From: a virus
Taxonomy: Duplodnaviria; Caudoviricetes
IMG/VR virus record: IMGVR_UViG_3300032227_000993
Length of the DNA: 64,000 nt
Reading direction: 5' to 3' (one strand)
This document shows positions 4,571-31,916 of the stretch, one piece after another; position 1 is the stretch's first letter, and each line of letters opens with the position of its first letter. The notes beneath the pieces are model-generated. The model saw only the letters and a list, made by a program, of their open reading frames with translations. It made no database searches and was not told the origin of the DNA. Made by a program: the position numbers and the translations under genes.

Positions 4571-4869
4571 TGGCCAGCTACGACGCAACATCTCCTTATT
4601 TTACCACTGGTTACAGTCAATTCTTTTTAGATACCATGACTAATCGTCCAATACCTAAAAATCCAGACGACCAGTATTTTACAATCAACGCGACATATCA
4701 GTATCGCCCAGACCTCTTGGCATATGACCTGTATGATAATTCCAACCTATGGTGGGTATTTTATCAACGCAATCCTAATACTTTACAAAAACCACCGCTG
4801 GATTTTGTATCGGGTACCCAAATTTATCTGCCAAGAATAACCACACTTCAATCAGCGTTGGGATTCTAA
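4570..4869 (+). CDS. gp53: Baseplate wedge protein, T4 gp53-like (LysM-like)
   Basis: YQYRPDLLAYDLYDNSNLWWVF...G..IYLP is the gp53/LysM-type pattern. ATG at 4570 overlaps the upstream TAA (track start is 4564). Confidence 0.75.
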   Translation: MASYDATSPYFTTGYSQFFLDTMTNRPIPKNPDDQYFTINATYQYRPDLLAYDLYDNSNLWWVFYQRNPNTLQKPPLDFVSGTQIYLPRITTLQSALGF

Positions 4870-14500: not shown

Positions 14501-15028
14501 TATCAAAGATGGATTCAAGATTCTACCAACACCGTAACTCAACCGCTACCACCAACCATTGACGAATTGACCACGGCCTACACAGGATTACAAAACTACA
14601 AAATGATCAGTGATAATATGATTATCAATAGTGTTGACTTCCAGCCGCTGTTTGGGCAAAAAGCCGACCCGGCTCTAAGAGCAACAGTCAAAGTTATTCC
14701 AGCTGCCGGCACATCAGCCAGTAATAATGAAATTAAAAATTTAGTTGTGGCTGCAATGAACGCATATTTTGATATCTCCTTATGGACTTTTGGCGAGACA
14801 TTTTACTTCTCAGAATTAGCGGCATACATACATTCACAAATTGGAACGTATGTGTCATCTGTAGTGTTAGTACCGCTTAACCCGCAAAAGAGTTTTGGAG
14901 ACTTGTATGAAATTCAGTGTGCCCCAAATCAAATTTTTGCCAACGGAGCCACAGTAAATGACATTGAAATCATTACAGCATTAACAAGTACCAATTTACA
15001 AACAGCGCCTGGTAGCGGAGTAATTTAA
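11585..15028 (+). CDS. gp6: Baseplate wedge protein, T4 gp6-like (1147 aa)
   Basis: YDFETLRKSFIDYL...FNDYIESSEFIALLDVMAF...ENYIDTAERRDSVVRLANLVSYTPKR, plus ETIQQIKERAP...QDRMVNGEDY. Confidence 0.85.
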   Translation: MAKTTRQTAIFGVEDWKRIYQTYSEGNFQSYDFETLRKSFIDYLRQYYPETFNDYIESSEFIALLDVMAFMGQAIAFRTDLNTRENYIDTAERRDSVVRLANLVSYTPKRNTAASGYLKVFAVSTTENVVDYNGLNLANLTINWADPSNFDWQEQFTAIINAALVDTQRVGNPANDQIILGVNTKEYTINLVPGYLPVVPYSSVISGISMPFEAVNASSLGSTFVYEPAPLPNGRFNVLYRNDELGFASANTGYFFFFKQGILQNQDFNLAERIANRTVDINIEGINNEDVWLYQLDNVGNVTKEWTYVPSVYGAAIEQMTPNTRTLFSTTSRTNDQITLTFGDGVFSTIPVGQFRNYVRASNGLQYIINPEEMQSVQIPISYVSRDGGIQTITFTCGITNPVSNAAPRETIQQIKERAPARYYTQDRMVNGEDYTNFPFTTYNSIIKSAALNRASIGTSRYLDLVDNTGKYSSTNIFSSDGALYEYNATPAFRFTWQTANDINNVILNEIQPVLIEEGAKQFYYANYPRPSLLTINYTWQESTTVVNETTGYFLNSVGTPAPVGIYVSNNAKYIVEGSLIKFTPPTGYYFNGDNQLVAGVPVKNDDKLVIWASPTAIYFDGTNNGAGNLADGMGPVVLNTYVPTGAIANQVIPLFITDLGTTVRQAIANQILTKSNFGLGYNNLTATWYVITSSNIDLNAQFSLANAQSTAGTNLDASWFIQCTNDGTNYTVQSRSLDYFFGSVLETRFFFYTAQPIYDSRTGSVISDFVRVLKTNSQPDSNYPLEGDTTLKIIGQPVLSDGLVNDYQVLVSYADNNTDGIPDNPDFFNDIVAPNVASNQKLVFFQQTVDFDNLERYLLVEPGVVNSDYPTLDAIELVKEQYVTGKIFYAYNPTNQAITSTFDYTQGTFYTLTVSLTGTRTLTQTPGWACAVGRQALAFQYRHNSPLTNRIDPGSTNIIDVYVVTLEYYTAYQRWIQDSTNTVTQPLPPTIDELTTAYTGLQNYKMISDNMIINSVDFQPLFGQKADPALRATVKVIPAAGTSASNNEIKNLVVAAMNAYFDISLWTFGETFYFSELAAYIHSQIGTYVSSVVLVPLNPQKSFGDLYEIQCAPNQIFANGATVNDIEIITALTSTNLQTAPGSGVI

Positions 15029-18000
15029 TGATAGCAAAAGTTCGGTCGGTTGACTTTTTACCTGAAATATTTCAGACGCCTGTCAACAAGCAATTTTTAT
15101 CAGCGACCTTAGATCAGTTAATTCAAGAACCGCAATTTACTACCACCCAAGGTTACATTGGGCAAAAAGTAGGTCCAGGTGTACAACCAGCTGACTACTA
15201 TGTGGTAGAATCGACCAAGCAACGCACAGATTATCAATTAGAACCTGGTGTTATCAGTGTAAACCCAACTGATGGCAAAATCAGTGATGCCATTACCTAT
15301 CCTGGTATTCTTGATGCCTTATCAACACAGGGAGCCTACACAGACAATGCTACTCGGTTGTTTTCAAGTGAATATTATTCTTGGGACCCGTTTGTTGACT
15401 TTGACAAACTGGTAAATTACAGTCAATACTACTGGTTGCCAGGCGGGCCTCTAGCAGTTGATGTGTCTGCTACAGATATTCCTGCCACTGACGACATCAC
15501 TGTCACAAGAGAAAACGGCGTTTACACGTTCAGTGGATATGCTGGCTCTAATCCAACAATTACTTTATTGCGCAACGGAAGTTACAATTTTATTGTGGCA
15601 CAGAATGACTCTGTTGCTGTAGATTTTCGTGTACAAAACAACGGATCAAGATACTGGATTATTGATTTTGAAAATAATCCAACCCTCACGTTGACTCGTG
15701 GCAACACATACACATTTAATTTGTCAGTGGATGGATTCTACCCATTCTACATTAAAACACAACCCACCTTTGGTACTACCAACGTTTACAACGATGGAGT
15801 TGTCAACAACGGTGCTGCCGAAGGATTGATCACATTCACTGTGCCGCAAGATGCCCCTGACACCCTGTACTATGTAAATCCAGCAGAGTTTAATCTTCGT
15901 GGCACCATGAACATCGTAGATGCCCAACCTGGTACTGGTCCGGGCTTCTGGATCCAAGCAGCGCCAGGAATTTCAGGCCGGTTACCTTGGAGTCCTAACA
16001 TTTCAAGTCGTGATGTATTGGGTGTACTCAACAACGGCACAGATTTAGGCACAGTAACATTCAATGTTCCAGATGCTCTGGCACAGAGTTTTTACACATC
16101 CATGCCTTACATCAACTATCCAACTCCTGGAGTAGGTAAAGTTGATTTAATTGTCAACGATTTATTGTTTAATCAAATTAATGCAATATCAGTAGATCAG
16201 TTTTTAAAAAATAATCCAAATGGCATCGATGGTATTACCAATCTCAATAATCGTACCTTGGTGTTTACTACACAAACAACTGACCCAGACTCTGGCGGTT
16301 GGGAAATTGAATCAGGATTTGACCCTTTGGTTCGAACAACAGGTCAGCAAGTATCAAAAAATATTGGATTCGATGTCACCGGGCAACCCTTTGACGATTT
16401 ACCGTATGATACCATCACCACGGTAATTACAGGGGTGCCAGATCCACAAGATGGAGAAATTGGATCTTTCGATATTCTTCCGCCAAACCCAACAATTCCT
16501 AACCCACCGGCATACAGTGGTTTTGGCGGCGCCACACCAATTACTGACAAAGAAGTTCAGTTCAGTGTATGGCAAATCCAATATGTCAATAATGCCGATG
16601 GTGTGCCATTTATTCAATTGAATAGTATTCTACCAGTTTCTGATTTGACCCAATTTAGTATTTCCTTTGGCTCAGAATATGTCAACACCAATTGGTACAA
16701 AAATTCTTCAGGCTTCTTTGAACAGATGCCTTTGTTAACAGCAACGCTGGATACTGTTTATTATCAAGACGGAACCGATCCTGAAATCTTTGGCCCTATC
16801 AATTTGATTGATGGAGATGTCAACGCATCTATTAATATTTTAACAGACATTCTTGGACAGAAAAATTACACCAGCCCCAACGGTGTGACATTTACCAACG
16901 GTCTCAAAGTTACCTTCCGTGGAAATGTCATTCCAAGCAGTTATCAAAACGAAACCTATTATGTTTATGGAGTTGGGTCCAGTATTACATTAACCCCAGT
17001 TTCGGTATTCATTACTCCCGAACAGTCCACACAGGTAATATCTGTAGGATATGATACAACGCCCTACGATTCTACAGGATTTGATCAGTCGCTGAACGAA
17101 CCTCTCGTGCCCAATTACATGACAATCAATATGGCAAGTATTGATCAGAATCCATGGACTCGTAGCAATCGGTGGTTCCATATTGATGTTATTAGACAAG
17201 CTGCTGCTTACAATCAAACAGCGCCGCTGTTTATCAACGCACAGCGAGCCCGTCGTCCTATTTTAGAATTCCGTGCCAACACACAACTTTACAATTTTGG
17301 AACTGAAGGAATAGCGCCAGTTAATGTGATTGACTTTACAGAAACTGATGCGTTGTCAAACATCAACGGATCTACCGCCTATGCTGTTGACGGATATCAA
17401 TTCCAACAAGATAGCTTGGTTGTTTTTGCGGCCGACACAGATCCCAATGTACGAAATCAGGTGTATCAAGTTAATTTTATTGTAGTAGACCCATCGACAT
17501 CAACAGTACCTATTATTGATCTAGTTCCAACTTCTTACAGCCCAGTACAAGCAAATCAGAATACTGTATGTTTAAGTGGAACCACACTCAAAGGTGTAAG
17601 CTATTATTACACTGGTACTGAATGGATAGAAACACAACAAAAAACAAAAACTAATCAACCACCGTTGTTTGATGTCTACGATGCCGCCGGTTACAGTTTT
17701 GGCAATACAACACAATATCCAAGTACTAACTTTACTGGTTGTAAATTATTCAGCTATGCCGAAGATACCAACAACACCGTAGATCCAGTATTAGGAATTC
17801 CTTTGGCATTTTTTAGTCTAAACAATATTGGTGATATTGAGTTTAGTAATAATTTGTACACTGATACTTTTGTTTACACACCGGTATCCTCAGGTGTTAC
17901 AGTAGATGTCAGTTCAGGTTTTGTTAGACAGTACTCAACTAGAGAACTATATATTCGTGAAATTGGCTGGCAAACAGCAGCAATACCATCAACACAGCGC

Positions 18001-21000
18001 CAGCAATTCCAATTTACCTATGACGGCAATCCATTACAGTTAGATATTTTAGTTTCATCTGAAACTATTGTAACACCTATTCAAATTTTTATCAATAATG
18101 AATATCAAACACCCAATACCTATGCTGTAACTACCAATACCACTTCTAATACCACATCAATTAGATTGACCGGTACAGGATATGTTGTGGGCGATATCAT
18201 TGAGGTATTGGTATTGAGCGATCAAACAAGCGCACAAGCCTTTTATGAAGTGCCTATCAACCTTGAAAACAATCCATTCAATGCCAACTCGCCTTTCTTT
18301 ACACTTGGAACTATTCGTGGCCACTATGGCACCATCTGTGAGAATTTAATTGAACTCCGTGGCCCTATCAATGGTGCCAATAACAGTCGCGACCTTGGTG
18401 ATATTGTTCCTTACGGCACACAAATTGTACAACAGTCTGCTCCACTGACATTGGCTGGATATTTCCTTCGCAGTAACGAATACAATATTTTTGCGTCTAT
18501 TGAATACAATAGTCGTGAATACATCAAGTACAAAAATAAATTGTTGACCACTGTGGCCAACATGGATATCAGCACAACAATGACTGTGCCAGAAATTCTT
18601 GATACAGCACTTTTACAAATCAATGCTAGTCTTACCAGCTCCAGTCCGTTTTACTGGAGTGATATGTTACCGGTAGGAACCAATTTCACATCAAATTCTA
18701 CTACGATAACACCAATTAGCACACAAACATTTAATACTATTCAAACTTATGATTTTACATCATCTAACTATCTAGGTTTATTGGTATATCTTAATGGCAT
18801 TTTATTATTGCGTAATACAGATTATACAGTATCTGTAGATGCTCCTAAATTAACAATTTTAGTTCCGTTGAGTGTGGGTGATGTGGTTACAATCGATGAG
18901 TATCCTACCACAGTAGGCAACTGGTGTCCTAATACACCAACAAAGATGGGCTTGTATTCTAAGTATCGTCCTGAGATTTTCCTTGATGAAACCTACACTT
19001 CTCCTACTCTTGTAATTCGTGGGCATGATGGATCTATAACAGTGGCGTTTACTGATATCCGTGATGAAGTATTATTAGAATTTGAAAAACGCATTTACAA
19101 TAACATTAAAGTTGACGATAATCCAATTCCGCTTTCGACAGATCAAGTTACTCCCAACTTCTTCCCAGCAGAAACCACTGGATTGTTACCAGGCTTTTTC
19201 CGACCAACACCATACACTTTCACAGAAATTAACACAATTTTAAGTCAAAGTTTCTTGACCTGGGTTGGTCAAAATAATCTTGATTACACTCAGCAAGATT
19301 ATCAGGAAACTGATCCATTCACATACAACTACAGCCAATCTGGCAATCGTATCAATGAACAACTATTGCTAGGCAACTGGCGCGGCATTTACCGTTATTT
19401 CTACGACACAGAAACACCTAATCTCACACCATGGGAAATGCTTGGCTTCTCTGAAATGCCTGCGTGGTGGGAATTACGTTATGGTCCAGCTCCTTACACC
19501 AGTGGCAACCTGGTGCTGTGGGATGATTTAAGAATAGGTTTAGTTGCGGATCCAGTGGCACCCTACATACTTTCTGAATATGCTCGCCCTAGCCTGATCA
19601 TGAAAGGTGTGATCTCAGTAGCGGTAATCAATGGCGGATCAGGATACACTTCGCCACCTGTGGCAGTCATTTCAGCCCCACCTGCTGGCCGTGATTTTAT
19701 AGCAGCTCAGTTGGGTACTCCAGTGATTCAAAATGGCGTAATTGTGTCAATTCCAGTGATTAATTCTGGTAGAGGATACGAAACACCTCCAACAATTTCT
19801 ATTATTCCTGCCGCAGGAGATACCACCGGTACCGGAGCCACTATCACAGCCACAATCGATACGGTTGTTTCAATTCTGCCGGTTGGTTCCGAAGGCGAAT
19901 TATTGTCACCGCTTGAGTCACTAATTGGTTTCTACGATAATCTAACCTTTAAGAAATCCTGGGTAGCTGGTGACGGCGGCCCTGTACAGGCTTCCTGGTG
20001 GAAATCAAGTTCATATCCATTTGCCATCATGCGTATGTTGGCTCTTACCAAGCCGGCAGAATTTTTTGCCTTGTATGCCGATCGCGACTTGTACCGTTAC
20101 AACACTGAGTTAGGGCAATTCCTTTACAACGACCGCTATCGTTTAGATGCCAACGGTGTCCAAGTGTATGGCAATGGCATTTCAAAAGCATCCTACATCA
20201 ACTGGATTGTAGATTACAACCGACAATTGGGTATCAATTCAACTGACACACTTACTACGGCTCTGGCCAATTTAGATGTTCGTCTATGCTATCGTATTGG
20301 CGGCTTCTCTGATCCGGTGTATCTTGCGGTTTACACCGAACGCAATGGTCCAGGATCAACAAATAATTCCTTGTTAATTCCGCCCGAAAGCTATGAAATT
20401 TTATTCTACAAGAACCAACCATTTGATCAGCTTACTTACAGCGCACTCATCATTGAACAGACACAAAATGAAAACGGCGTAATAACATATTCTGTTTATG
20501 GTTACAGTAACATGCAACCTTACTTCAATGTCCAGGTTAGTAGCCCTGTTGGATTGTATGAAACATTAGAAGCTGGCGGACTTGCTGTACAAGTGCCAAT
20601 ACAATACACACAAAATGTAGCCCAAGTTCCTTATGGATACTCATTTACCAATGCTGCTGGTGTTTGCGATTTTATTTTGGGATACGGTACATATCTTGAA
20701 AGCCAAGGACTAATATTTGATGATCGATTCAACGGATATGAACTAAACTGGAAGCAAATGGCCAAAGAGTTCTTGTACTTTGCGGCACAAGGCTGGGCTC
20801 CGGGCACAATGATAAATCTAAATCCAGTGGCTACCACTCTTAAAGCAGTCAAGCCAATCAGCATTGTTGATACCATTGCCAGCCTTACACCTGAAAATAT
20901 GTTGCTTGATCAATATCGTTTCGTATTGGAAGCTCGTAATTTAGTTATTAATCGTGAAAACAATGTATTCTCTATCACTTCAACCAATGGCCAAACAATT

Positions 21001-24000
21001 AGTTTTATAACATTGCGCTATACCAACTACGAAGACATGATTGTATTTGATAATACAAGTCAGTACAATGATTTAATTTATGATCCCAGCACCGGTGCTC
21101 GTCAAACACGATTGAGTTTTAATGCCTTTGTTACTACTGAGTGGGATGGTCAATTAAATGCCCAGGGCTTTATTACTAATTTAGACAATGTTAAACAATG
21201 GGAAACATATCAAAAGTACACCAAAGGCGACATTGTTCTATACAAAAATACCTACTGGCAGGCCTTGGACATTGTCCAGCCTTCTGAAGAATTTAACTAC
21301 AATTCGTGGACCAAGAGTGATTATCAATTAATCGACCGAGGATTATTGCCTAACTTGGCCAACAAAGCAGATCAGCTGGCCAACACATATTCTATCTACG
21401 ATATCAATTTAGCCAGTGACAATGATTTATTTGCGTTTGGATTAATTGGTTTCCGTCCACGCCAGTATATGTCAGATTTAAATCTGGACAGCGTGACACA
21501 GGTTCAACTGTACCAGCAATTTTTAGGTACCAAAGGAACAGTTCGTGCCGCAGAAATCTTCAGTCGAGCAGATCTTGGCAAAGAGTCTGGCGAATATCAA
21601 ATTTATGAAAATTGGGCTGTACTGGCTGGCACCTACGGGGCACAAGCCAATAAAAGTTTCTTTGAATTAAATCTAAATGAAGCGGATCTTAGATCTAATC
21701 CAAGTACAGTACAAATCATCAACCCAGGCGAAACAAGCCAAGCCGACCAGGCTATTTTGTTACAAAATATCTGGAGAGAAAGTTACAAAATCAACTCAAC
21801 TGATATTTTGCCTACTGTGTACGAAAGCGGCAACGGCTTCCCATCAGCTGGTTATGTTTCTCTTGATGATGTAGATATCACAGTATTTGATATTAAAAAT
21901 CCTGCAGCCATTGCCGCAGATATTGAAACTATTGGCATTGGAACCTACATCTGGATTGCCAAAATTAATCCCTACAACTGGGGCGTGTACCGCACAAACA
22001 AAGTACCAGGTCAACTGTCAGTAATAAGTGACAATTATGATGGCACAAGTATTGCGTTGTTTACCACGGCTCACGGATTAACCACCGGCGATACCATTGT
22101 TATTAGAGAATTTAATCTCAGTGTCAACGGTGTTTATCGTGTGTTATCTACTCCGTCAATCACCACAATCACCATCGCATTTGCTTTTGTCAATACAAAT
22201 CAAACATCTGTGTCTGGCACAGGAATAGTGTATGAATTACAAAGTGCTCGAGTAAGTCAAGCCAGTGATATTGCTACTTTGCCTTATGTCAATCGTTTGA
22301 TTCCTGGAGAAAAAGTCTGGGTAGATGACAACGGTGATGGCCTGTGGGAAGTGCTTGAAAAACAATCTCCGTTTACTCTCAGCAATACTCTTATCTCAGG
22401 ATTAACAGCCACAGCCAACTATGGACTCAGTGTAGCTCAAACAGTTGACAGCATTGCCGCCTTGGTAGGCGCTCCTGGAGCAGCCAGCGGCACTGGATTG
22501 GTGTACACTTATGTCCGCGATATCAACTTGGATTACATCTTTAATGGTGTAATAAGTTTAACTGCTACTGGCACCGCGGGCTTTGGTAACATTGTCTTTA
22601 TTGGAAATCAAAATTGGGCCGCAGTTGGAGCAAGTTTAAGTAACAGCGGCGCAGGGTATGTTGCTGTGATGTATCGTGTGAGTGGTAGCAGTGATTTTAC
22701 TATTACACAACTATTAGTGGCACCAGATTTGAATTTTTCTAACATTGGCTTTGGTGCTGCTGTTACAATCAGTGATGATGAGCGTTGGATGTACATAAGT
22801 GCCCCGTCAATCAATACTGTCTATGCCTACCAGCGGATTGAGGTACAAAGTCAAACCGCATCATACATTACCAACGGATTGACAAATACATTCAACTACA
22901 GCAATACCATTCAAATTGATCCAACAAATCCAAATCAATTAAGTGTTACACTTGGCCGTAGAACTTGTATTCTTGGCATTGACTACAACATTAACGATTC
23001 AGTTGTAATTTTTGAATATATTCCGGCCGCTGGACAATCATTGATTGTTTCACGCAACTTGACATCACAGCTTGATGCCACTACATATTATGACATTCAC
23101 CAAAATTCAACCAGCGGAATAGGTACTGGAGCAGTATTTGTAATATCTAATATACGTGGTACCTATTCTGTGGCATTAGATAATGGCGGAGTTGCTTATG
23201 CTGTTGGCAATACACTAACAATTAGCTACACACAAATTTCCCCCACAGGATCTGCTGCTAATAATTTAACAATCACCGTGACATCGGTTGATGGCGTTGG
23301 TGGCATTACTGAATTTACCTTTGCTGGTTCAGGAGTAGCAAATACATCTGTGTTTGCTCTTGATACAACATTGTACACTGCAACTACTATTGAAACATTC
23401 TCAATCGTGGTTAATCAAGAAATTCAACGTCCATACATTGATTATACATTCAATGAAACTACAACACAAGTTACTTTTATAACTGTTCCGCCTGCCGGAG
23501 CAACTATTATTGCCAATGCTGGATCATACTGGCAATATCTTGATACTGTCAACAACCCTGCTTCTACTGCTGGCGACAACTATGGCGCAAGTTTATCAAC
23601 ATCAACTGACGGTCGATTATTGGTTGTTGGAGCTCCGCAGGCAGAAGCCGATGGTATTATTGAAGCTGGACAGGTTTACACTTACGATCGTAGTGTAACT
23701 CGTTATCTTGTTACCGACGCTGCTCAACTAACCTATGCTATTCCAACACCTGTAACCCAACCTATTGCAGTAAGTGTAAATGGTACGTTCCTACTATCAA
23801 CCAACCAGGCTGTTGACGGACAATACAGCGTGAGCGGCAGTAATGTGTTGTTTACCAATATTACCCTTAATGTAGGCGACAACATTGAAATTGAAACAAA
23901 TCAATTTACGCTGTTGCAGAGTTTTAATTCAAGCACACCGTCTTACCAAGCAACATATGGAACAGCCGTTGATACGTGTCCACAGAATTGTAGTTTTTAT

Positions 24001-27000
24001 GTTGGCGCTCCGCTTGACAGTACCTATTTGGCGCAGTCAGGATCAGTTGATCATTTGGTCAATCAATCAAGAGTCTACGGAGTAACAACATCAACCATTG
24101 CTAATCCAGCATTGACCGGCGGAGATAATATTCGTATCAACGACATCGCTTTAAGAATTCCAGATGCTCCGTACAATAATGTTGAAGGTTTAGCAGCCGC
24201 TATTAATACAGCAGACATTCCAAATGTAATAGCCACAGCCACTTCAAATCTTGAATTTGTAGGCGACGGCATAACTACCGCCTATGACATCGGAACACTT
24301 TATTCCGCAGCAGCTTCATACACCACGGTAGTTTACATTTCAGATTCGTTGCAGGTTGAGGGAGTAGACTATTCGTATGATCCAGCAACACAAAAAATTT
24401 ATTTTGTAGTTGCTCCAACAGCAGGAACTTTGATTGTTATTGTGTCGGGTCGTATTACAATTTCCGTACAAAATCAAGCGGCAGCCAACCCGTCGGCCAT
24501 GCTCACTGTATTGCCGGGTAATATTGGCACAGCATTTGATGAGCTTGGATTTAATACCTTTGTATTCACACAACAAATTCTCAGCCCAGCACCTACTGTG
24601 TATGGCCTATTTGGATCATCACTTAGCATAGATTCAAGTGCTGTTAATTTAGTAGTTGGTTCACCAAACGGCAATGTTTACGAACCAATGATATTTGACA
24701 ATGGCAACACTTATTTTGATGATCGTAGCACCACATTCTACAATCCAATTCCTAATAGTGGAGTAGCCTACACATACGATTATTTCCCAAGCAGTAAAAA
24801 ATCAATCCTTACTCCGGGACAATTTGCTTTTGGCCAACAAATTTACAATACAAAGGAACAAACTGGCGATTCGTTTGCATTCTCAGTAAATTACACCACA
24901 GGCAGATTATTGGTTGGCGCATTAGGAGATATTAACAATACTGCCTATGGTTATTCTACAGTATTTAGAAACTACACCAACTCACCAGCCTGGGCACAAA
25001 TCCGTGTTCAACAGCCGGTGGTAAATGTTGATCAAATCAATAGTGTGTTTATGTACAATAGATTATTAAACAGCACACAAACCTACTTTGATTTTATTGA
25101 TCCGCTACAAGGCAAGATCCTTGGAGCCGCACGTCGCAACATTGACTACATTGGCGCTGTAGATCCTGCTCAATACAACACAGGCCCTGTACACAATAAC
25201 GGCAATCAGTGGGGAAGCGAACACATTGGAGAAATGTGGTGGGATACCGACACAGTAAGATTTATTGATCCAAACCAGGATGACATAGTGTATGCCAGTC
25301 GCAAATGGGCCTCGTCATTTCCTGGCAGCAGGGTAGACATCTATCAATGGATCAGTAGTGATGTTCCGCCGGCAAGTTACACTGGCGCAGGAACACCCTT
25401 GGGCAATGCAAGCTATACTGTAGGATCAGTATTGGGACAAAATAATGTATTCCAGACAATTTACTACTATTGGGTTCGTGGCCTTACTACCATTGCTGAA
25501 GGCTCTGGCAAAACACTAAGTTCATCTGGTATTTCAAGTTACATTCTTGATCCGCGCAATAGTGGCATACCATACATTGCTGCTCTCAACGCAAATACCA
25601 TAGCACTTTACAATGCCGCTCCGTATTTGTCAGCCGACACTTCTATTATTAGCATAGGTTTTGATCGTGTGCTTACAAGTGCCAATATTCATCAAGAATA
25701 CGAACTTATTGCTGATGGAATTGCTGATTCGTTCTTGAATACAAACTTGCATCGTAAATTCCTTGACAGTTTCTGCGGAGTCAATGCAGCAGGCGCTCTT
25801 GTGCCTGATCCAAACTTGCCCAAAGGCGAGCGGTACGGAGTTCAATTCCTTCCACGCCAGTCAATGTTTGTTGATAGATTTGCAGCCTTACAAAATTATC
25901 TTGGTCGAGCCAATACTATTCTCAAACAATTTCCTATTGTTGAAATGCGATCTTTCAGTTTACTCAATGCGGCTGAGCCTGTTCCGCAGTCAACAGTTAT
26001 TGTTGACGGAACCACAGTAACTGTTTGGAATTTGGAAGTTGCTAACCTTGAAATTTTAGCCTTCCAAAATTTAGCCGCAGTTCCTGTGGGCTACAAATAT
26101 CTTGTGTTGTCAGACAGCAGTCAAGATGGCCGCTGGACAATTTACACAGTTACTGAATCAAGAACATTGATGTTGTCTCGAGTTCAAAGTTATGACACTC
26201 CATTGTATTGGTATTACACTAACTGGTATTTGCCTGGCTACAACAGCAGTACAGCACCAAAAGCCGCAGTTCAGCTATTTGCTGATTTGGCATCATTAAG
26301 CTACACAGTAGTGCCAATAGGCGCCAGTGCTCGCGTCATCAATAACGGCGCTGGAAAATATGAAATTTATCTTCGCACAGGATTAAATCCAACAACAGAT
26401 TGGCAGCGAGTTGGCTTAGAAGACGGAACAATACAATTTAAAGAAGAATTATGGGATTATGCTCTTGGCGGCTTTGGATTTGATTCTGAAGTGTTTGATG
26501 CACAATACTTTGATGAAGAACCAGTTGTAGAAACACGCTACATACTTCGCGCTCTTAACGAAGAAATTTATGTAGACGAATTAGCCATTGAGCGTAATAA
26601 AGCACTCATGTTGATGTTTAATTTTGTGTATACAGAATTTACAAGCCCTGAATGGTTGACTAAAACCAGTTTAGTGGATGTCAATCACAAGATTCGTTCA
26701 TTGTTACCATACCAAACTTATCTACAAGATAATCAAAACTTTGTTCTTCAGTACTTTAACGAGGTCAAACCATATCACGTACAAGTACGCCAGTTCAATT
26801 TAATTTATTCTGGTGACGATACCTACCAAGGTGATGTAACCGATTATGATGTACCAGCCTTTTACAATCGTGATTTGGAAATTCCGCAATTTGTTAGCCC
26901 AATACTAACACCGTATGATTTGTCTCAAGTGTCTACACCCACCAACACTTTCAGCAATACTGAGCCAGACGCACAAATTTGGCTTGAAACTCCGTGGAAT

Positions 27001-29796
27001 GAATGGTTCAATAACTATTTGCTGAGTGTTCAAGGAGCCACAGTAGTCAGCGGCGGTGACGGATACACTATTGCTCCTATTGTTGAAGTAACTGGTAATT
27101 GTGTTGTTCCGGCTGTGATGACAGCAACAATCAATAGTGTTGGTCGTGTGATTGCTATTAATATTGTGTCTCCGGGATCAGGCTATTCATCTACTGCAAC
27201 TATTACAATCTCCGGCGGAAACTTGCCAGCTGATCCAACACCTTGGGCCGCTGGATTAAATGTATCATCATCAGCATACATTATTTCCTTATCAAACAGC
27301 ATATATGAAGTGGCCACCGGTGGTACTTTAGGAAATGTATCTCCAACTGGCACAGTTGATCAAGTCAACGGCAATGTTGCGCTGGTGTACATGGGAACAG
27401 TGGCAGTTGCTACAGCACAAATGGGTAACCCACTGGTGCGCTCAATTAAAACCACAATCAAGTATGACCGTTACCAATACAGTTCAACTATTGTTCCGTG
27501 GGTATCCGGCGACACATACGCTACAGGAACTCAAGTTCGTTATGACGCCAAAGTATGGGAAGCACTCACTACAGTTTCTAACACTATATTTGATCCAGAT
27601 CAGTGGGATTTAGTTAATGCATCCAGCCTCAGCGGCGCTGATCGTACCATGGGTATGTACGAGCCAACTCCTAATCAGCCTGGCTTGAGCTGGCCACTGT
27701 TGGTTGATGGAGTTGATTATCCAGGTGTACAAGTAGCCGGAGTAGCATTTGATTTAGATCCAGGATTTGATCGTGCTCCGTTTGATACCACTCCTTTTGA
27801 CAACAGCTTTACAGAACCAAGCGGTCGTGTTACATTTGACCCTGCTCTTCTTGACACGATCTACGCAAGTAATTACGCAGATACATTCTTAGGAACACGT
27901 CTATCTGATATCAATGTTGACGGTGGCGCATACGTAGATACCTATTCAAGTCACGCACCAGAAGAATTAGTTCCTGGAGCAATGTTTGATACCTTGGACA
28001 TTCGTGTTTACACCACCCCGGGTGCTGACTGGGCAGGAAACGGACATGGATTCCCAGCTGCCTCACAACGTTTTACCTACACAACAACAGCTCCTACTTA
28101 CAATTTTGCTGATATTTTACCCTATCCTGTTGTTATTGCTCTGACTAATCAAACTGCCAAAGCAGGACTAAATGAGGGTACAGATTACACCATTGATTGG
28201 GAAAATTTAACAGTTACAATTATTGACAATGTAGCCAATGGCTCTACTATCAGTATTACTGTTTATGAATTAGGCGGTGGAAATCAATTGTACAAGAACA
28301 TCTACAATGGCGCAGATGTTGGAGATACTATTGTGGTACCACTGCAGTTTGCTTCAATTTACGAATTTGCTATTTTTGTCAACGGCGTACAAACTACTGA
28401 CTTTGTGTTCACAGACAACACCACAGTAACATATGGCACAACATTGATTACATTTGGAACAACCTACACCAACGCTGATTTTATTTCGTTAGTAGCAATT
28501 GGACCCACTACCATTGATGGTGTTACCACAGATTATTCATGGAGTATTCCAGTAACACAATTAATTGAAGTTGATTTGATAGGACAGCTTACATTTGACT
28601 TGGACAATAGTTTAGATTACACAAATTCTGTTAATCCTGTAATTACGGTCAACGGAGTCCGTGCTGTCACTGCCGGCGGCATAGAATATGTAAGTGACGG
28701 AACAACTACGTCTTATCTAGTGGCCCAGCGTTTAGGATTTGATCAAATTGAGGTAACTGATTCAACAGTATTTGTTTATTGTGATAATATTTTACAAACT
28801 GCTGGCTATTTTGTTAACCCATCATCCGCTGGCGCCACTGTTCAATTCACCACAGTTCCTGCAGCTGGTGTTTTAATTTACATCGCTGTAACAACTAATG
28901 TACAAGCTGTAATAGATACTACCACAGCCACAGTATCATTTAATCCTACAGGCGGTTTGATTCCTAGCCTAGGTGATATCATTGCTGTAACTACATTTAA
29001 TGATGTTCGTGAACAGGGCTTGGCAACCAAAGTATTTGTTGGGCCAGTGAGTGACGGTGGAGTTATTTTAGTTGAAGGATACGACACTACATTATTTGAT
29101 GCGGCCACGGTCAATTTCACTCCTGGATCATACAACTATACTGTTGGTGTTGAGTCTTTGGAAAATGCCCTGTATTTAAATCGTCATATTACTGAAACAA
29201 ATCGTATTTTGGTAACATTAAATGGCCAAATTCTAACACCAGACATAAACTACACATTGTACAATGGCCCACTTGCTGATGACCCAGCCTATGGAACAGA
29301 ACTTATTTTAAATTCTGGCATATTGCAAGTAACTGATGTAGTGATGGTTACATTACTTACTGAATCTGTTGTGCCAGAAGCCATGGCATTCCGTATTTTC
29401 CAAGATATGCGTGGCGTACAGTTGACATATCGTATTACTCCATCAACAACTACTACAGTGGCGCAGGCAGTTTCACCTACTGATGACATTATCTATGTGG
29501 TCAATGCTAGTAACCTAAGCCAACCAAATTTTGCTGCTAACTTGTGGGGCGTGGTAACCATTGATGGCGAGCGTATTATGTATCGCGAGCGTGATACTAC
29601 AGCCAATACTATCAGCAGCCTGATCCGTGGCACAGCAGGTACAGGAGCGGATAGTCATGCAGTTGGTGCCAGTGCCTATGACATGGGTCGCGGCAACGCA
29701 TTACCAATGGAATATCAAGACCACATTGTAAGTACTACAATATTAGCTGACGGCACTGAAACAGTATTCGTTGCTCCCAACATAAATTTAGATTGA
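15028..29796 (+). CDS. Giant virion/baseplate wedge protein (4922 aa, gp7 position), multi-domain
   Basis: Uninterrupted 14.8-kb ORF right after gp6. Contains FG-GAP repeats, repeated beta-sandwich modules (V-x-V-x-V-NG...DY...P..G), GSGY-type repeats and [FY]D-x3 acidic-aromatic repeats. Confidence 0.75.
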   Translation: MIAKVRSVDFLPEIFQTPVNKQFLSATLDQLIQEPQFTTTQGYIGQKVGPGVQPADYYVVESTKQRTDYQLEPGVISVNPTDGKISDAITYPGILDALSTQGAYTDNATRLFSSEYYSWDPFVDFDKLVNYSQYYWLPGGPLAVDVSATDIPATDDITVTRENGVYTFSGYAGSNPTITLLRNGSYNFIVAQNDSVAVDFRVQNNGSRYWIIDFENNPTLTLTRGNTYTFNLSVDGFYPFYIKTQPTFGTTNVYNDGVVNNGAAEGLITFTVPQDAPDTLYYVNPAEFNLRGTMNIVDAQPGTGPGFWIQAAPGISGRLPWSPNISSRDVLGVLNNGTDLGTVTFNVPDALAQSFYTSMPYINYPTPGVGKVDLIVNDLLFNQINAISVDQFLKNNPNGIDGITNLNNRTLVFTTQTTDPDSGGWEIESGFDPLVRTTGQQVSKNIGFDVTGQPFDDLPYDTITTVITGVPDPQDGEIGSFDILPPNPTIPNPPAYSGFGGATPITDKEVQFSVWQIQYVNNADGVPFIQLNSILPVSDLTQFSISFGSEYVNTNWYKNSSGFFEQMPLLTATLDTVYYQDGTDPEIFGPINLIDGDVNASINILTDILGQKNYTSPNGVTFTNGLKVTFRGNVIPSSYQNETYYVYGVGSSITLTPVSVFITPEQSTQVISVGYDTTPYDSTGFDQSLNEPLVPNYMTINMASIDQNPWTRSNRWFHIDVIRQAAAYNQTAPLFINAQRARRPILEFRANTQLYNFGTEGIAPVNVIDFTETDALSNINGSTAYAVDGYQFQQDSLVVFAADTDPNVRNQVYQVNFIVVDPSTSTVPIIDLVPTSYSPVQANQNTVCLSGTTLKGVSYYYTGTEWIETQQKTKTNQPPLFDVYDAAGYSFGNTTQYPSTNFTGCKLFSYAEDTNNTVDPVLGIPLAFFSLNNIGDIEFSNNLYTDTFVYTPVSSGVTVDVSSGFVRQYSTRELYIREIGWQTAAIPSTQRQQFQFTYDGNPLQLDILVSSETIVTPIQIFINNEYQTPNTYAVTTNTTSNTTSIRLTGTGYVVGDIIEVLVLSDQTSAQAFYEVPINLENNPFNANSPFFTLGTIRGHYGTICENLIELRGPINGANNSRDLGDIVPYGTQIVQQSAPLTLAGYFLRSNEYNIFASIEYNSREYIKYKNKLLTTVANMDISTTMTVPEILDTALLQINASLTSSSPFYWSDMLPVGTNFTSNSTTITPISTQTFNTIQTYDFTSSNYLGLLVYLNGILLLRNTDYTVSVDAPKLTILVPLSVGDVVTIDEYPTTVGNWCPNTPTKMGLYSKYRPEIFLDETYTSPTLVIRGHDGSITVAFTDIRDEVLLEFEKRIYNNIKVDDNPIPLSTDQVTPNFFPAETTGLLPGFFRPTPYTFTEINTILSQSFLTWVGQNNLDYTQQDYQETDPFTYNYSQSGNRINEQLLLGNWRGIYRYFYDTETPNLTPWEMLGFSEMPAWWELRYGPAPYTSGNLVLWDDLRIGLVADPVAPYILSEYARPSLIMKGVISVAVINGGSGYTSPPVAVISAPPAGRDFIAAQLGTPVIQNGVIVSIPVINSGRGYETPPTISIIPAAGDTTGTGATITATIDTVVSILPVGSEGELLSPLESLIGFYDNLTFKKSWVAGDGGPVQASWWKSSSYPFAIMRMLALTKPAEFFALYADRDLYRYNTELGQFLYNDRYRLDANGVQVYGNGISKASYINWIVDYNRQLGINSTDTLTTALANLDVRLCYRIGGFSDPVYLAVYTERNGPGSTNNSLLIPPESYEILFYKNQPFDQLTYSALIIEQTQNENGVITYSVYGYSNMQPYFNVQVSSPVGLYETLEAGGLAVQVPIQYTQNVAQVPYGYSFTNAAGVCDFILGYGTYLESQGLIFDDRFNGYELNWKQMAKEFLYFAAQGWAPGTMINLNPVATTLKAVKPISIVDTIASLTPENMLLDQYRFVLEARNLVINRENNVFSITSTNGQTISFITLRYTNYEDMIVFDNTSQYNDLIYDPSTGARQTRLSFNAFVTTEWDGQLNAQGFITNLDNVKQWETYQKYTKGDIVLYKNTYWQALDIVQPSEEFNYNSWTKSDYQLIDRGLLPNLANKADQLANTYSIYDINLASDNDLFAFGLIGFRPRQYMSDLNLDSVTQVQLYQQFLGTKGTVRAAEIFSRADLGKESGEYQIYENWAVLAGTYGAQANKSFFELNLNEADLRSNPSTVQIINPGETSQADQAILLQNIWRESYKINSTDILPTVYESGNGFPSAGYVSLDDVDITVFDIKNPAAIAADIETIGIGTYIWIAKINPYNWGVYRTNKVPGQLSVISDNYDGTSIALFTTAHGLTTGDTIVIREFNLSVNGVYRVLSTPSITTITIAFAFVNTNQTSVSGTGIVYELQSARVSQASDIATLPYVNRLIPGEKVWVDDNGDGLWEVLEKQSPFTLSNTLISGLTATANYGLSVAQTVDSIAALVGAPGAASGTGLVYTYVRDINLDYIFNGVISLTATGTAGFGNIVFIGNQNWAAVGASLSNSGAGYVAVMYRVSGSSDFTITQLLVAPDLNFSNIGFGAAVTISDDERWMYISAPSINTVYAYQRIEVQSQTASYITNGLTNTFNYSNTIQIDPTNPNQLSVTLGRRTCILGIDYNINDSVVIFEYIPAAGQSLIVSRNLTSQLDATTYYDIHQNSTSGIGTGAVFVISNIRGTYSVALDNGGVAYAVGNTLTISYTQISPTGSAANNLTITVTSVDGVGGITEFTFAGSGVANTSVFALDTTLYTATTIETFSIVVNQEIQRPYIDYTFNETTTQVTFITVPPAGATIIANAGSYWQYLDTVNNPASTAGDNYGASLSTSTDGRLLVVGAPQAEADGIIEAGQVYTYDRSVTRYLVTDAAQLTYAIPTPVTQPIAVSVNGTFLLSTNQAVDGQYSVSGSNVLFTNITLNVGDNIEIETNQFTLLQSFNSSTPSYQATYGTAVDTCPQNCSFYVGAPLDSTYLAQSGSVDHLVNQSRVYGVTTSTIANPALTGGDNIRINDIALRIPDAPYNNVEGLAAAINTADIPNVIATATSNLEFVGDGITTAYDIGTLYSAAASYTTVVYISDSLQVEGVDYSYDPATQKIYFVVAPTAGTLIVIVSGRITISVQNQAAANPSAMLTVLPGNIGTAFDELGFNTFVFTQQILSPAPTVYGLFGSSLSIDSSAVNLVVGSPNGNVYEPMIFDNGNTYFDDRSTTFYNPIPNSGVAYTYDYFPSSKKSILTPGQFAFGQQIYNTKEQTGDSFAFSVNYTTGRLLVGALGDINNTAYGYSTVFRNYTNSPAWAQIRVQQPVVNVDQINSVFMYNRLLNSTQTYFDFIDPLQGKILGAARRNIDYIGAVDPAQYNTGPVHNNGNQWGSEHIGEMWWDTDTVRFIDPNQDDIVYASRKWASSFPGSRVDIYQWISSDVPPASYTGAGTPLGNASYTVGSVLGQNNVFQTIYYYWVRGLTTIAEGSGKTLSSSGISSYILDPRNSGIPYIAALNANTIALYNAAPYLSADTSIISIGFDRVLTSANIHQEYELIADGIADSFLNTNLHRKFLDSFCGVNAAGALVPDPNLPKGERYGVQFLPRQSMFVDRFAALQNYLGRANTILKQFPIVEMRSFSLLNAAEPVPQSTVIVDGTTVTVWNLEVANLEILAFQNLAAVPVGYKYLVLSDSSQDGRWTIYTVTESRTLMLSRVQSYDTPLYWYYTNWYLPGYNSSTAPKAAVQLFADLASLSYTVVPIGASARVINNGAGKYEIYLRTGLNPTTDWQRVGLEDGTIQFKEELWDYALGGFGFDSEVFDAQYFDEEPVVETRYILRALNEEIYVDELAIERNKALMLMFNFVYTEFTSPEWLTKTSLVDVNHKIRSLLPYQTYLQDNQNFVLQYFNEVKPYHVQVRQFNLIYSGDDTYQGDVTDYDVPAFYNRDLEIPQFVSPILTPYDLSQVSTPTNTFSNTEPDAQIWLETPWNEWFNNYLLSVQGATVVSGGDGYTIAPIVEVTGNCVVPAVMTATINSVGRVIAINIVSPGSGYSSTATITISGGNLPADPTPWAAGLNVSSSAYIISLSNSIYEVATGGTLGNVSPTGTVDQVNGNVALVYMGTVAVATAQMGNPLVRSIKTTIKYDRYQYSSTIVPWVSGDTYATGTQVRYDAKVWEALTTVSNTIFDPDQWDLVNASSLSGADRTMGMYEPTPNQPGLSWPLLVDGVDYPGVQVAGVAFDLDPGFDRAPFDTTPFDNSFTEPSGRVTFDPALLDTIYASNYADTFLGTRLSDINVDGGAYVDTYSSHAPEELVPGAMFDTLDIRVYTTPGADWAGNGHGFPAASQRFTYTTTAPTYNFADILPYPVVIALTNQTAKAGLNEGTDYTIDWENLTVTIIDNVANGSTISITVYELGGGNQLYKNIYNGADVGDTIVVPLQFASIYEFAIFVNGVQTTDFVFTDNTTVTYGTTLITFGTTYTNADFISLVAIGPTTIDGVTTDYSWSIPVTQLIEVDLIGQLTFDLDNSLDYTNSVNPVITVNGVRAVTAGGIEYVSDGTTTSYLVAQRLGFDQIEVTDSTVFVYCDNILQTAGYFVNPSSAGATVQFTTVPAAGVLIYIAVTTNVQAVIDTTTATVSFNPTGGLIPSLGDIIAVTTFNDVREQGLATKVFVGPVSDGGVILVEGYDTTLFDAATVNFTPGSYNYTVGVESLENALYLNRHITETNRILVTLNGQILTPDINYTLYNGPLADDPAYGTELILNSGILQVTDVVMVTLLTESVVPEAMAFRIFQDMRGVQLTYRITPSTTTTVAQAVSPTDDIIYVVNASNLSQPNFAANLWGVVTIDGERIMYRERDTTANTISSLIRGTAGTGADSHAVGASAYDMGRGNALPMEYQDHIVSTTILADGTETVFVAPNINLD
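22410..24970 (+). repeat. Seven FG-GAP-like repeats (integrin-alpha-type beta-propeller) inside the giant ORF
   Basis: YGLSVA..LVGAP, FGNIV..VGAS, FGAAV..ISAP, YGASL..VVGAP, YGTAV..VGAP, FGSSL..VVGSP, FAFSV..LVGAL. Boundaries approximate. Confidence 0.7.
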
Positions 29797-31511
29797 TAAG
29801 ATATGGCCGTTGAACTTCCACAACCATTTGACTCAACTGACTATGATTCTCCTACCGTAGGTAACGTGTTAGAGACATTGCCTGGGCAGTTTGATTTTAG
29901 CAACATTACTCTTACACCTACCACTGTGGCTAATGCTGTAATTGGCGTGGCCTACACACAGCAAATTACAATTTCTGGTGGCTTGGCGCCATACGGCAAC
30001 TTATTTGTTAGTGCTGGTAATTTACCTGCTAATTTGTCTTTGAGTTCTACAACCAATGATTTAGTTAATAATATTGCCAATGCCAATATTACTGGAATAC
30101 CTACTAACTATGGAAATATTACTTTTACAATCCAAGGCAATGATGTAATAGCCAACGTAAGTTTTCCTACTCAACAAACATACAATTTATTAGTAAATTA
30201 TCCTACCATCACAATATCTCCCGGCAGTTTGACCAACGCGGTTGTAGGGCAAAGTTACAGTCAAGCATTTACAGCCAGCGGTGGCACCGGCCCATACACT
30301 TACAGTAATGTAGGAAACTTACCGCCGTCATTGTCGTTAAGTGGTAGCGGCAGTTTAACTGGGAATATCACAACTACTACTACACCACAGAGTTTAACAA
30401 TACGAGCCACTGATAGTTATGGCAGTACAGGTAATGCCACTTACAGTTTAACCGTCACTCGCCCAACCATTACTATTGCTCCAAGCACATTATCAAATGC
30501 TACCACTGGATCAAGTTATTCTGCTAACATCACAGCCGCTGGCGGAACAGCCCCGTATTCATATGCTGTTACCGGAAATACTCTTCCTAACAATTTATCA
30601 TTAAATGCCAACACCGGAGTACTGTCGGGTGTTGTTATTGCTGATGGAATTGGTAATTTTTCTATTACAGCAACAGACTTTTACAGCACAACTGCCACTA
30701 ACAATTATTCGTTAACCACAGTTGATCCAACTATTTTAATTAGCCCATCGACAATATCAAACGGAGTAGTAGGAACAGCCTACACTCAAATATTTACATC
30801 CAGCGGTGGCACCGGCCCGTACACATATTCTGTAACCGGTGGGACACTACCGGCTAATTTGGTATTGGCTACCACGGGTAATTTGTCTGGTACGCCTAAT
30901 ACAGCTGCCACATCAAATTTTACAATTACCAGTACAGACACATTTAGTACAACAGGATCGTTTACTTACAGCAATGTTGTAATGACATCTCCAACTATCA
31001 GTTTGTCTCCAACTACATTTGCCAACGCCACAGCTGACTCACCATACTCAGCTAACGTTTTTGCTTTTGGCGGCATTGCTCCGTACACCTTTGCGGTTAC
31101 CAGCGGTACATTTCCACCTGGCTTAAACTTAAGTAATTCTGGAGCCATTACAGGAATACCAACTTCTGTTAGTACATTTAATTTTACTATCACAGCCAGC
31201 GACTTGTACAGTAGCACAGGCAATAGAAATTACAATATATTAGTAAATCCTCCAATAATAACAATTAGTCCGCTAACGATTCCTCAAGCGGTTGCCAATG
31301 TATCTTACACAGCAACCTTTACAGCCGCCGGCGGCACAGCACCCTACACTTACACCTCGGCTGAACTGCCGGCTGGTATGTCACTGGCATCCAGCACTGG
31401 TGTATTATCAGGCACACCGTTGGTCAATGGGTATCAACCATTTGTGGTTGTCGCCACAGACGATAACGGATATCCGGGCTCTCGGTTGTACAATTTTGTA
31501 GTTGCTCCCAA
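29770..31511 (+). repeat. 11-bp exact direct repeat GTTGCTCCCAA flanking the Ig cassette
   Basis: Copies at 29770-29780 and 31501-31511, both in codon frame V-A-P-N, 1731 nt (577 codons) apart. Confidence 0.85.
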
Positions 31512-31752
31512 TGTTCCATCATCTGCTATCCGAGTATTTGTAGGCGGAATTCTACAAACTTCTGGATACACCGTCACATCAAAATCTCCAGCAACTATCA
31601 CATTTGATGAACCACCGCCCGAAGGTGTAGATGTAACAATAGCAGTACTTCAGGGTGAAACTTGGTATCAACCCGGGCCTTATTCTGCGTCCGATGGTGT
31701 ACCGTTACAAGAGACAGAAACAACGGCCGCAAGGTTTTTGCGTGGCCTATAA
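29803..31752 (+). CDS. Virion protein with six putative Ig (He_PIG-like) domains
   Basis: Six ~90-aa units of the form I-T-I-x-P..L..A.VG..Y...TA.GG..PY.Y......LP.GL.L..TG.LSG.P; Ser/Thr/Asn-rich; ends in SDGVPLQETETTAARFLRGL. Confidence 0.85.
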   Translation: MAVELPQPFDSTDYDSPTVGNVLETLPGQFDFSNITLTPTTVANAVIGVAYTQQITISGGLAPYGNLFVSAGNLPANLSLSSTTNDLVNNIANANITGIPTNYGNITFTIQGNDVIANVSFPTQQTYNLLVNYPTITISPGSLTNAVVGQSYSQAFTASGGTGPYTYSNVGNLPPSLSLSGSGSLTGNITTTTTPQSLTIRATDSYGSTGNATYSLTVTRPTITIAPSTLSNATTGSSYSANITAAGGTAPYSYAVTGNTLPNNLSLNANTGVLSGVVIADGIGNFSITATDFYSTTATNNYSLTTVDPTILISPSTISNGVVGTAYTQIFTSSGGTGPYTYSVTGGTLPANLVLATTGNLSGTPNTAATSNFTITSTDTFSTTGSFTYSNVVMTSPTISLSPTTFANATADSPYSANVFAFGGIAPYTFAVTSGTFPPGLNLSNSGAITGIPTSVSTFNFTITASDLYSSTGNRNYNILVNPPIITISPLTIPQAVANVSYTATFTAAGGTAPYTYTSAELPAGMSLASSTGVLSGTPLVNGYQPFVVVATDDNGYPGSRLYNFVVAPNVPSSAIRVFVGGILQTSGYTVTSKSPATITFDEPPPEGVDVTIAVLQGETWYQPGPYSASDGVPLQETETTAARFLRGL

Positions 31753-31764
31753 CTATGGTAAATA
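31750..31764 (+). promoter_or_regulatory. Putative late promoter (TAACTATGGTAAATA)
   Basis: TAAATA at 31759-31764, 5 nt before the ATG at 31770; 14/15 identical to the 11143 element. Confidence 0.55.
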
Positions 31765-31769
31765 AGAAT

Positions 31770-31916
31770 ATGAATGAAAATAACCAATTATCACAGCCTG
31801 TACCGGCTCCAAAGCCGGAAAAGCGCCCAGACGACACTGGCCGCGTTGGTGTAGAAGGGTTTGTTAAGATTTTTGATCCTAACAGCCGTAAAGTATTTGT
31901 GGAGCAGCAAGCATGA
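31770..31916 (+). CDS. Small hypothetical protein (48 aa)
   Basis: ATG at 31770 follows the TAAATA box (the track's 31662 start lies inside the Ig gene); ATGA overlap with the next gene. Confidence 0.6.
   Translation: MNENNQLSQPVPAPKPEKRPDDTGRVGVEGFVKIFDPNSRKVFVEQQA

Follow-up and report, generated by a model that had tools for sequence, protein, structure and literature searches.

Why does a giant phage baseplate protein stop partway through its last domain, and why does the remainder of that domain lie at the far end of the next gene? The question is raised by a 64,000-nt stretch of IMG/VR virus record IMGVR_UViG_3300032227_000993 (Duplodnaviria; Caudoviricetes), called the window throughout, which comes from a 361,177-bp contig of an uncultured lake phage. 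Here, the last residues of a 4922-aa protein, the giant (...ILADGTETVFVAPNINLD), are followed by TGA TAA GAT and then by the ATG of a 649-aa open reading frame (ORF) in the same frame (29803-31752), the Ig ORF, which carries an array of immunoglobulin (Ig)-like domains. A preliminary description of the window, made from its letters alone, had recorded two in-frame ORFs with TGA TAA GAT between them, which the sequence bears out, and had proposed that six Ig domains were inserted into the giant's last domain. We arrive at a different history for the same divided domain: gene fission at a hypervariable display loop, after which, we infer, the cargo is docked in trans by completing the giant's domain, an explanation to which we assign a somewhat better than even chance.

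The terminal module and its two halves

The features of the locus are listed below, with coordinates of the window.

15028..29796, + strand: gene of the giant baseplate protein (4922 aa), located after gp25-like and gp6-like wedge genes and terminating in TGA
29719..29793, + strand: the stub, predicted beta-strands 1 and 2 of the terminal jellyroll (HIVSTTILADGTETVFVAPNINLD) in the giant's last ~25 residues; profile positions 2-23
29794..29802, + strand: the fission junction TGA TAA GAT, with the ATG of the next ORF directly after it; read from the sequence and bridged by variant contigs
29803..29904, + strand: N-terminal 34 residues of the Ig ORF (PQPFDST..PGQFDFSN), a remnant of the ancestral loop, colinear with the loop of fused relatives
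29905..31503, + strand: the cargo, six tandem He_PIG (cadherin-like Ig) domains, from Pfam PF05345 and an AlphaFold2 (AF2) model
31519..31665, + strand: the module's other five strands (IRVFVGG..VDVTIAV); profile positions 32-80, independent E-value (i-E) 3e-20
31666..31752, + strand: conserved C-terminal peptide (WY.PG...L-Q.T.T.AARFLRGL) and stop codon; invariant columns in alignment A1

We describe the module by a profile built from the terminal modules of 74 fused relatives, in which the giant carries both halves in one chain. In the window, profile positions 2-23 match giant residues 4900-4921, and positions 32-80 match residues 573-621 of the Ig ORF. This partition shows that the predicted terminal jellyroll is split after strand 2, in agreement with the earlier proposal of one terminal domain cut in two across the ORFs. 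The giant retains strands 1-2; the 649-aa protein consists of the loop remnant, the adhesin array, strands 3-7 and an invariant C-terminal peptide, the last two of which we call the tail. The profile also locates a complete internal copy of the module at giant residues 4555-4625 and weaker copies elsewhere in the giant, which bears out the internal repeats that the preliminary description had recorded. The count of six Ig domains likewise holds: the Ig ORF matches PF05345 (He_PIG) in six stretches (E 2.5e-55, 185.3 bits against a gathering cut-off of 24), and its AF2 model contains six beta-sandwiches with Z-scores up to 12.8 against adhesin and cadherin-like domains.

No part of the family's C-terminus is more invariant than the C-terminal peptide (alignment A1, columns W, Y, G, L, Q, A and F), whose predicted local distance difference test score (pLDDT) is low in the models except in a short terminal helix. 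The last ~28 residues (WY.PG....G..LQ.T.T.AARFLRG., window 31666-31749), which in all relatives hold the majority of the invariant columns of the whole C-terminal region, are probably a binding peptide for another virion component.

In the fused relatives, the module comprises the equivalents of the giant's last ~23-25 residues and the Ig ORF's last ~77-80 residues, contiguous in one chain and following the pattern ...YQNYIVS..LADG.TTVF.A.DI.L - loop - VEVYVGG...GYT...F..AP..G.EVTILVRRGVTWY.PG...LQ.T.T.AARFLRGL. Among the 120 best homologous giants, 117 run on from the stub into the tail when aligned, and stub and tail are separated by a gap of -1 to 142 aa. The last 85 residues do not form a separate gene in relatives that lack Ig domains, so that the condition named in the preliminary description as refuting its divided domain comes out in favour of that domain. 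A separate IMG/VR sample contained 80 loci, and the module is undivided in all 80, with upstream stops located only hundreds of codons before an intact module. These comparisons of sequences show the fused state to be ancestral and overwhelmingly common. In a fused relative checked for synteny, the gene order is gp25-like, gp6-like, giant, 46-aa ORF, 202-aa ORF and fibre, and no gene separates the giant from the 46-aa ORF.

The fold was examined in a model of a fused relative's last 218 residues, where confident strands flank a low-confidence loop. Foldseek gave no match to the PDB at E <=0.001 with the module model, and the structural matches were obtained with VIA-align. Residues 88-185/195 of the fused-relative model match, as a single domain, the tail-fibre anchor of LME-1 (9efk_AE; Z 9.6, root-mean-square deviation (rmsd) 1.8, 67 aligned), followed by the fibre N-termini of P-SCSP1u and Carin-1 (Z 8.0, 8.3), residues 187-250 and 265-333 of the CBA120 tailspike protein TSP4 (Z 7.6, 7.1; rmsd 2.0-2.1), the R4C Dit protein (8gtc_G; Z 7.3) and the N-terminal domain of T7 gp17 (gp17-N; 7boz, Z 6.2). 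Taken over model residues 84-195, these alignments (Z 6.2-9.6, rmsd 1.8-3.3, 63-70 aligned) predict the terminal module to be a ~70-residue beta-jellyroll of the T7 gp17-N and T4 gp10 XD2-XD3 type. The stub's strands belong to the aligned domain because the tail side has only ~47 confident residues.

We also modeled the window's own two ORFs as a read-through chain, with the stops replaced by Gly. The stub forms a hairpin (strands E60-68 and E75-78) with a pLDDT of ~90, the tail module reaches 89-94, and the junction and loop motif stay below 50; residues 61..702 align to 9efk_AE (Z 9.3, 67 aligned, rmsd 2.2). Both models thus place the two halves in one T7-gp17-N/T4-gp10-XD-like jellyroll. 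A two-chain prediction, pairing the giant's last 85 aa with the Ig ORF's last 90 aa (113-row alignments), gave a median of 0.31 against a mark of 0.32 and is not used as evidence. At the sequence level, the fold is reached by matches below threshold. The only PDB hit is 8gtc_G (E 0.21, sub-threshold), which spans both halves at chain residues 101-169. Matches to PF03906 in relatives' terminal modules (15.2-18.5 bits, E 0.0017-0.018) lie below its gathering score of 25.2, and Pfam reported no PF03906 hit in the window's own pieces; the best match to PF09343 (DUF2460), in P0098, scores 25.3 bits (E 1.2e-5) and lies below the gathering score of 30.4.

Recurrence of the split and translation of its halves

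The same split is present in at least five other loci (L001-L004 and the pair P0041/P0171), where the cargo consists of 3-8 He_PIG domains or of an S8 protease. The giants P0116, P0122 and P0041, together with those of L003 and L004, end in ...TVF[VT]A[PS]NI..*, and the following ORFs lie downstream of split giants and carry the tail at their end.

P0125, 841 aa: He_PIG array
P0123, 356 aa: three He_PIG domains
P0128, 745 aa: He_PIG array
P0129, 834 aa: He_PIG array
P0171, 632 aa: Peptidase_S8, downstream of giant P0041

Three more ORFs join an S8 protease to the tail (P0191, P0254 and P0259). Like P0171, they encode subtilisin-like (Peptidase_S8) proteins of 605-634 aa, each with its own propeptide-like N-terminus, that terminate in strands 3-7 and a giant-type C-terminal peptide; such proteins would mean that a protease is displayed on the phage baseplate.

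The profile matches the split giants from position 1 to 21-23 and the cargo ORFs (n = 11) from 29-32 to 80, except for P0259, whose match starts at 21 in what we judge to be a weak extension. A clear copy of strands 1-2 in cis (profile positions 1-23) is found in none of the 11 cargo ORFs. Two candidate substitutes were rejected: FVVAPN in the He_PIG type, whose FVV Pfam assigns to He_PIG, and VAYQPL..INID in the S8 type, which has no clear profile match to positions 1-23. Between split loci, the amino acids of the stub are kept while 8-13 of its 24 codons differ synonymously, a pattern of sequence change that indicates purifying selection on the stub in every split locus.

Could the ribosome nevertheless join the two halves? 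Recoding, by readthrough or frameshift, would yield one protein of ~5570 aa and make the split a regulatory device, and the ORFs are in frame in the window, in L002 and apparently on the P0041 contig (a 9-nt gap whose frames were compared by gene coordinates only). However, both stops of the tandem TGA TAA would need to be read through, no slippery run or downstream structure was noted, and the S8 cargo ORFs start with a propeptide-like N-terminus of their own. The spacers between stop and start found among L001-L004 are TAAGAT (in L002, whose junction is identical to the window's), GATT, T and T (1-6 nt); the other split loci read TAA GATT ATG or TAA T ATG. Of the five sequenced loci, the window and L002 keep the cargo ORF in frame, and L001, L003 and L004 have it in the +1 frame; the frame of the cargo ORF is closed 1-8 codons upstream of its start (3-8 codons in the three +1 loci). 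General readthrough is excluded because of these +1 frames, and the signature of programmed stop-codon readthrough, an ORF held in frame across relatives behind a single leaky stop, is not what the loci contain. We regard recoding as very unlikely, and coupled but separate translation of the giant and cargo ORFs as likely. Most genes of the window have a weak or no Shine-Dalgarno sequence in our comparison.

A second possibility is that a fused gene recently acquired a nonsense mutation or was misassembled, in which case the locus would be a pseudogene or an artefact. Isolated in-frame stops do exist in some giants, as in L044, 409 codons before the module. In contrast, the junction studied here recurs in relatives that have diverged and whose spacers and frames differ, both ORFs are intact and conserved, and the junction is present in variant contigs of several samples from two studies; the contigs that span it carry 1-17 differences and come from three other runs, including a different study. 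We give a mutation or artefact next to no weight. The split is shown to be conserved, recurrent and present in several samples.

Several other candidates for a split did not survive inspection. Most short tail-bearing proteins returned by the homologue search are giants truncated at contig ends; P0145 has both module halves in cis and is a gene fragment; and L044, L008, L014 and L046 have an intact module. In these last four giants from IMG/VR, a stop in frame precedes the terminal module by 250-590 codons (in L044 at nt 4774, in the context ..RARTAA*IVYVGD...); it may reflect a sequencing error, a polymorphism between strains or a further point of fission.

The history of the split was traced in trees of its two sides. 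The He_PIG-linked tails form one clade (95/87), a sign that cargo and socket are inherited together. In the tree of the giants, the split ones do not group, with four changes of which at least two are forced by well-supported branches; only P0041 is firmly separated. This S8-type giant and the fused P0068 are close sisters (branch lengths 0.04, 0.02), and the last ~30 residues of P0171 are common with P0068 while the preceding strands differ. The single tail clade, the scattered giants and the relations of P0041, P0068 and P0171 therefore point to at least two origins of the split, or to genes encoding cargo plus socket that move between backbones by recombination in conserved flanks.

The display loop and the 11-bp repeat

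Where was the ancestral module opened? In the relatives (P0003-P0122), at the place that corresponds to window 29793/31519, the loop between strands 2 and 3 falls into discrete gap classes of -1, 5-7, 29-34, 45-50, 60-68 and 108-142 residues, a distribution that shows the loop to be an insertion hot spot. The first 34 residues of the Ig ORF (PQPFDSTDYDSP...PGQFDFSN) are colinear with the 29-34 class (..APNI[NT]LN....PFD.....PG.YDFG....VEVYVGG), as found in the fused relatives P0033, P0052, P0063 and P0072, and this loop motif is also conserved in P0125 and P0127-P0129. Alignment with fused relatives indicates that the INLD following VAPN is ancestral as well. Since the start of the Ig ORF and INLD are both ancestral, the stop/start and the Ig insertion occupy two different points of the loop: the former lies near the old loop's beginning and the He_PIG array follows the loop motif. 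All inserts of <=142 aa are seen in frame, and all He_PIG and S8 cargos are seen on split ORFs.

The larger classes have features of their own. The 45-50 class carries a YY.A...YW.P motif, for which Pfam gave no confirmation of a CBM5/12 identity, and the 60-68 class resembles an extra nested module. Close backbones can differ in loop class (45 aa in P0037 vs 135 aa in P0044), which suggests frequent module swapping.

The preliminary description had placed the breakpoints elsewhere, at two copies of an 11-bp direct repeat.

29770..29780, + strand: first GTTGCTCCCAA copy, encoding V-A-P-N of the stub; judged coincidental
31501..31511, + strand: second GTTGCTCCCAA copy, at the end of the last He_PIG domain and in the linker; from the sequence and the Pfam boundary

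That GTTGCTCCCAA occurs twice only in the window, 1731 nt apart and in frame, is correct. If recombination between the copies deleted the 1731 bp, a fused giant would be restored, and the array would be an excisable or invertible cassette; the exactness of the repeat, its frame and its confinement to these two sites speak for such a cassette. Against it stands the background: exact direct pairs of 11-mers number 1605 in the window, and of 1032 segments of 60 nt, 78 (7.6%) have an 11-mer in common with the following 1950 nt. The match does not extend into the flanks of the two copies, and at the equivalent places of the four split relatives L001-L004 the longest shared strings are 8, 5, 5 and 5 nt. 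Because 11-mer pairs are common, the repeat is absent from the split relatives and the flanks do not match, it carries no significance as a junction. Neither copy lies at a homology breakpoint: the second covers the final residue of He_PIG domain six and the linker (Pfam's match stops at residue 567), and its surroundings, YNFVVAPN, resemble the internal He_PIG boundaries YNILVNPP and YSLTVTRP. We regard the repeat as a coincidence, aided, as its sequence context suggests, by similar strand-Pro-Asn peptides.

Insertion by microhomology at the repeat thus finds no support, and excision fares no better. Logan contigs from four runs contain no joint that skips 29781-31511, although contigs cannot reveal rare variants, and the loop of the deletion product would be ~3 residues shorter than any natural class. 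We consider an excisable cassette exceedingly improbable.

Proposed docking of the cargo and comparison with known systems

The giant's position in the virion is indicated by the genes upstream of it, which encode a gp5-like hub, a gp25-like wedge protein and a gp6-like wedge protein (PHROG matches phrog_13211, phrog_43 and phrog_10646/219) and which form an adjacent cluster of the T4-type baseplate wedge kind; PF21379 has a weak Pfam match in this neighbourhood. From these hub and wedge genes, the giant is predicted to be a peripheral baseplate protein of a T4-type myophage. A search with its last 573 residues returned >500 homologues of ~4650-5490 aa, all metagenomic. Since neither blastn nor tblastn of the region matched any of 50,697 deposited phage genomes, metagenomes are the sole known source of the family. 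Near-identical DNA occurs in metagenome runs only, and the runs of other studies are labelled freshwater. An exact-word scan of IMG/VR with the window's tail confirmed nothing, and a profile-based scan succeeded. The tip of this ~5000-aa baseplate protein family is a likely site of host contact.

Giant residues 1-1500 (window 15028-19500) match the profile phrog_10938 ('virion structural protein', 3324 positions; E 4e-144), and residues 180-299 match phrog_677, a gp9-like baseplate wedge tail fibre connector. Functions of several T4 wedge proteins may be merged in the giant, and some deposited phages must carry a homologue of its N-terminus, though none has one of its C-terminus. Downstream, the giant or cargo gene is always followed by a small ORF (31755-31916, 53 aa; 45-48 aa in relatives), which overlaps by 4 nt a 202-aa ORF (31913-32521; phrog_11259, function unknown); both are conserved in fused and split relatives alike. 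The 395-aa protein encoded at 32577-33764 has fibre-like hits among the PHROGs and, in its C-terminal part, a weak match of the Peptidase_G2/intramolecular-chaperone type; it is a probable tail fibre or spike that ends in a self-cleaving chaperone.

We now consider how the two halves could work together. The giant and the Ig protein would be made as two polypeptides by tightly coupled translation, and the incomplete module of the Ig protein would then fold onto the giant's terminal hairpin. The adhesin (in relatives, the protease) would thereby be attached at the baseplate periphery, where it would bind a host surface polymer. The gene for cargo plus socket would become swappable, a step proposed because the He_PIG arrays differ in length and relatives carry an S8 protease version. 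The window and all split relatives contain what donor-strand complementation needs, namely two polypeptides of which one has an incomplete fold and the other supplies the missing strands (2-23 / 32-80). Of the earlier proposal of docking by strand complementation, the split domain is established by the profile and by the fused relatives; the docking itself is the best-supported reading of the split and is reached by inference.

Three considerations weigh against docking on the stub, and a fourth limits its structural support. The invariant C-terminal peptide alone could anchor the cargo protein elsewhere, and the stub may be conserved through packing on the preceding domain. XD domains act as trimers. 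The read-through model, an artificial single chain with an alignment dominated by fused relatives, indicates compatibility only.

The first of these considerations leads to the main rival explanation, in which the stub is a leftover, and the cargo attaches through the C-terminal peptide, or through the five-strand part, to another baseplate component. The C-terminal peptide holds the majority of the invariant columns of the family's C-terminus, is always on the cargo ORF and is modeled with low confidence outside its terminal helix, as expected of a segment that needs a partner. Yet purifying selection keeps the stub in every split locus, no cargo ORF has a clear cis replacement for strands 1-2, and the models put the stub inside the module. 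We consider a leftover stub rather unlikely. The chances are about even that we are dealing with a natural plug-and-socket system, in which a family of freshwater jumbo phages encodes its cargo in a separate gene that also supplies five of the seven strands, exchanges this gene horizontally and lets its product self-assemble on the giant's two-strand hairpin. If so, beta-strand complementation would be a modular principle of receptor-binding-protein attachment in phages. It would explain how the display loop tolerates very large inserts (<=142 aa in frame, He_PIG and S8 cargos by the split) and would provide a small natural tag-and-socket pair (~25 + 80 residues) for displaying proteins on phage particles.

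Attachment through gp10-type XD domains or T7-type N-terminal anchors, and binding modules inserted in loops, are well known. The literature searched yielded no case of one such domain shared out between an anchor and its cargo at a fission point that recurs; the top hits contained no description of the giant's family or of strand complementation in phage baseplates, which does not prove novelty.

'Evolved' Dit and Tal proteins of lactic-acid-bacteria phages have carbohydrate-binding modules inserted in their loops. As here, a loop of a baseplate beta-sandwich displays host-binding modules of variable size; in those proteins the inserts are in frame in one polypeptide, whereas the He_PIG and S8 inserts occur only with the two-gene split. 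The DUF2460 domain (PF09343; 8gtc_G) of gene transfer agent and siphophage distal tail proteins resembles the module in that its sequence-level PDB hit spans both halves, but its protein context differs and its scores are under the curated thresholds.

In chaperone-usher pili, an incomplete beta-sandwich is completed by a strand of another polypeptide, giving a very stable non-covalent joint. The likeness lies in an incomplete fold of one chain completed by another, which in the phage is what we propose. Pilins are without one C-terminal strand and are given an N-terminal extension, whereas the acceptor here is without two N-terminal strands and the donor would be a C-terminal hairpin; the two systems are evolutionarily unrelated.

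The best structural matches are the T7 gp17 N-terminal domain (PF03906) and the podophage anchors of LME-1, P-SCSP1u and Carin-1. They have a pattern in common with the module, DG.T..F ... V.V.G ... Y.V ... F...P..G. The podophage domain stands at the fibre N-terminus and docks the fibre to the tail, whereas the giant, a myophage baseplate protein, contains internal repeats of it and also ends in one. In branched tailspike docking, TSP4 segments 187-250 and 265-333 are XD2/XD3 jellyrolls, fold homologues of T4 gp10 XD2/XD3, that dock partner proteins (PMC8825819). T4 gp10 XD2/XD3, CBA120 TSP4/TSP2 and G7C gp66 share with the giant a ~60-70-residue beta-jellyroll on a baseplate or anchor protein, which in those systems attaches host-recognition proteins (PMC8825819) and would do so here; sequence similarity to the module is not detectable. 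In those systems, complete domains of both partners meet surface to surface as trimers, while this phage has one domain in two parts. Host range depends on the way in which phages attach their interchangeable host-recognition proteins, and in the known solutions the adaptor domains that bind one another are complete. Dividing one domain between the anchor and its cargo, if it works as proposed, would be a different and very compact solution.

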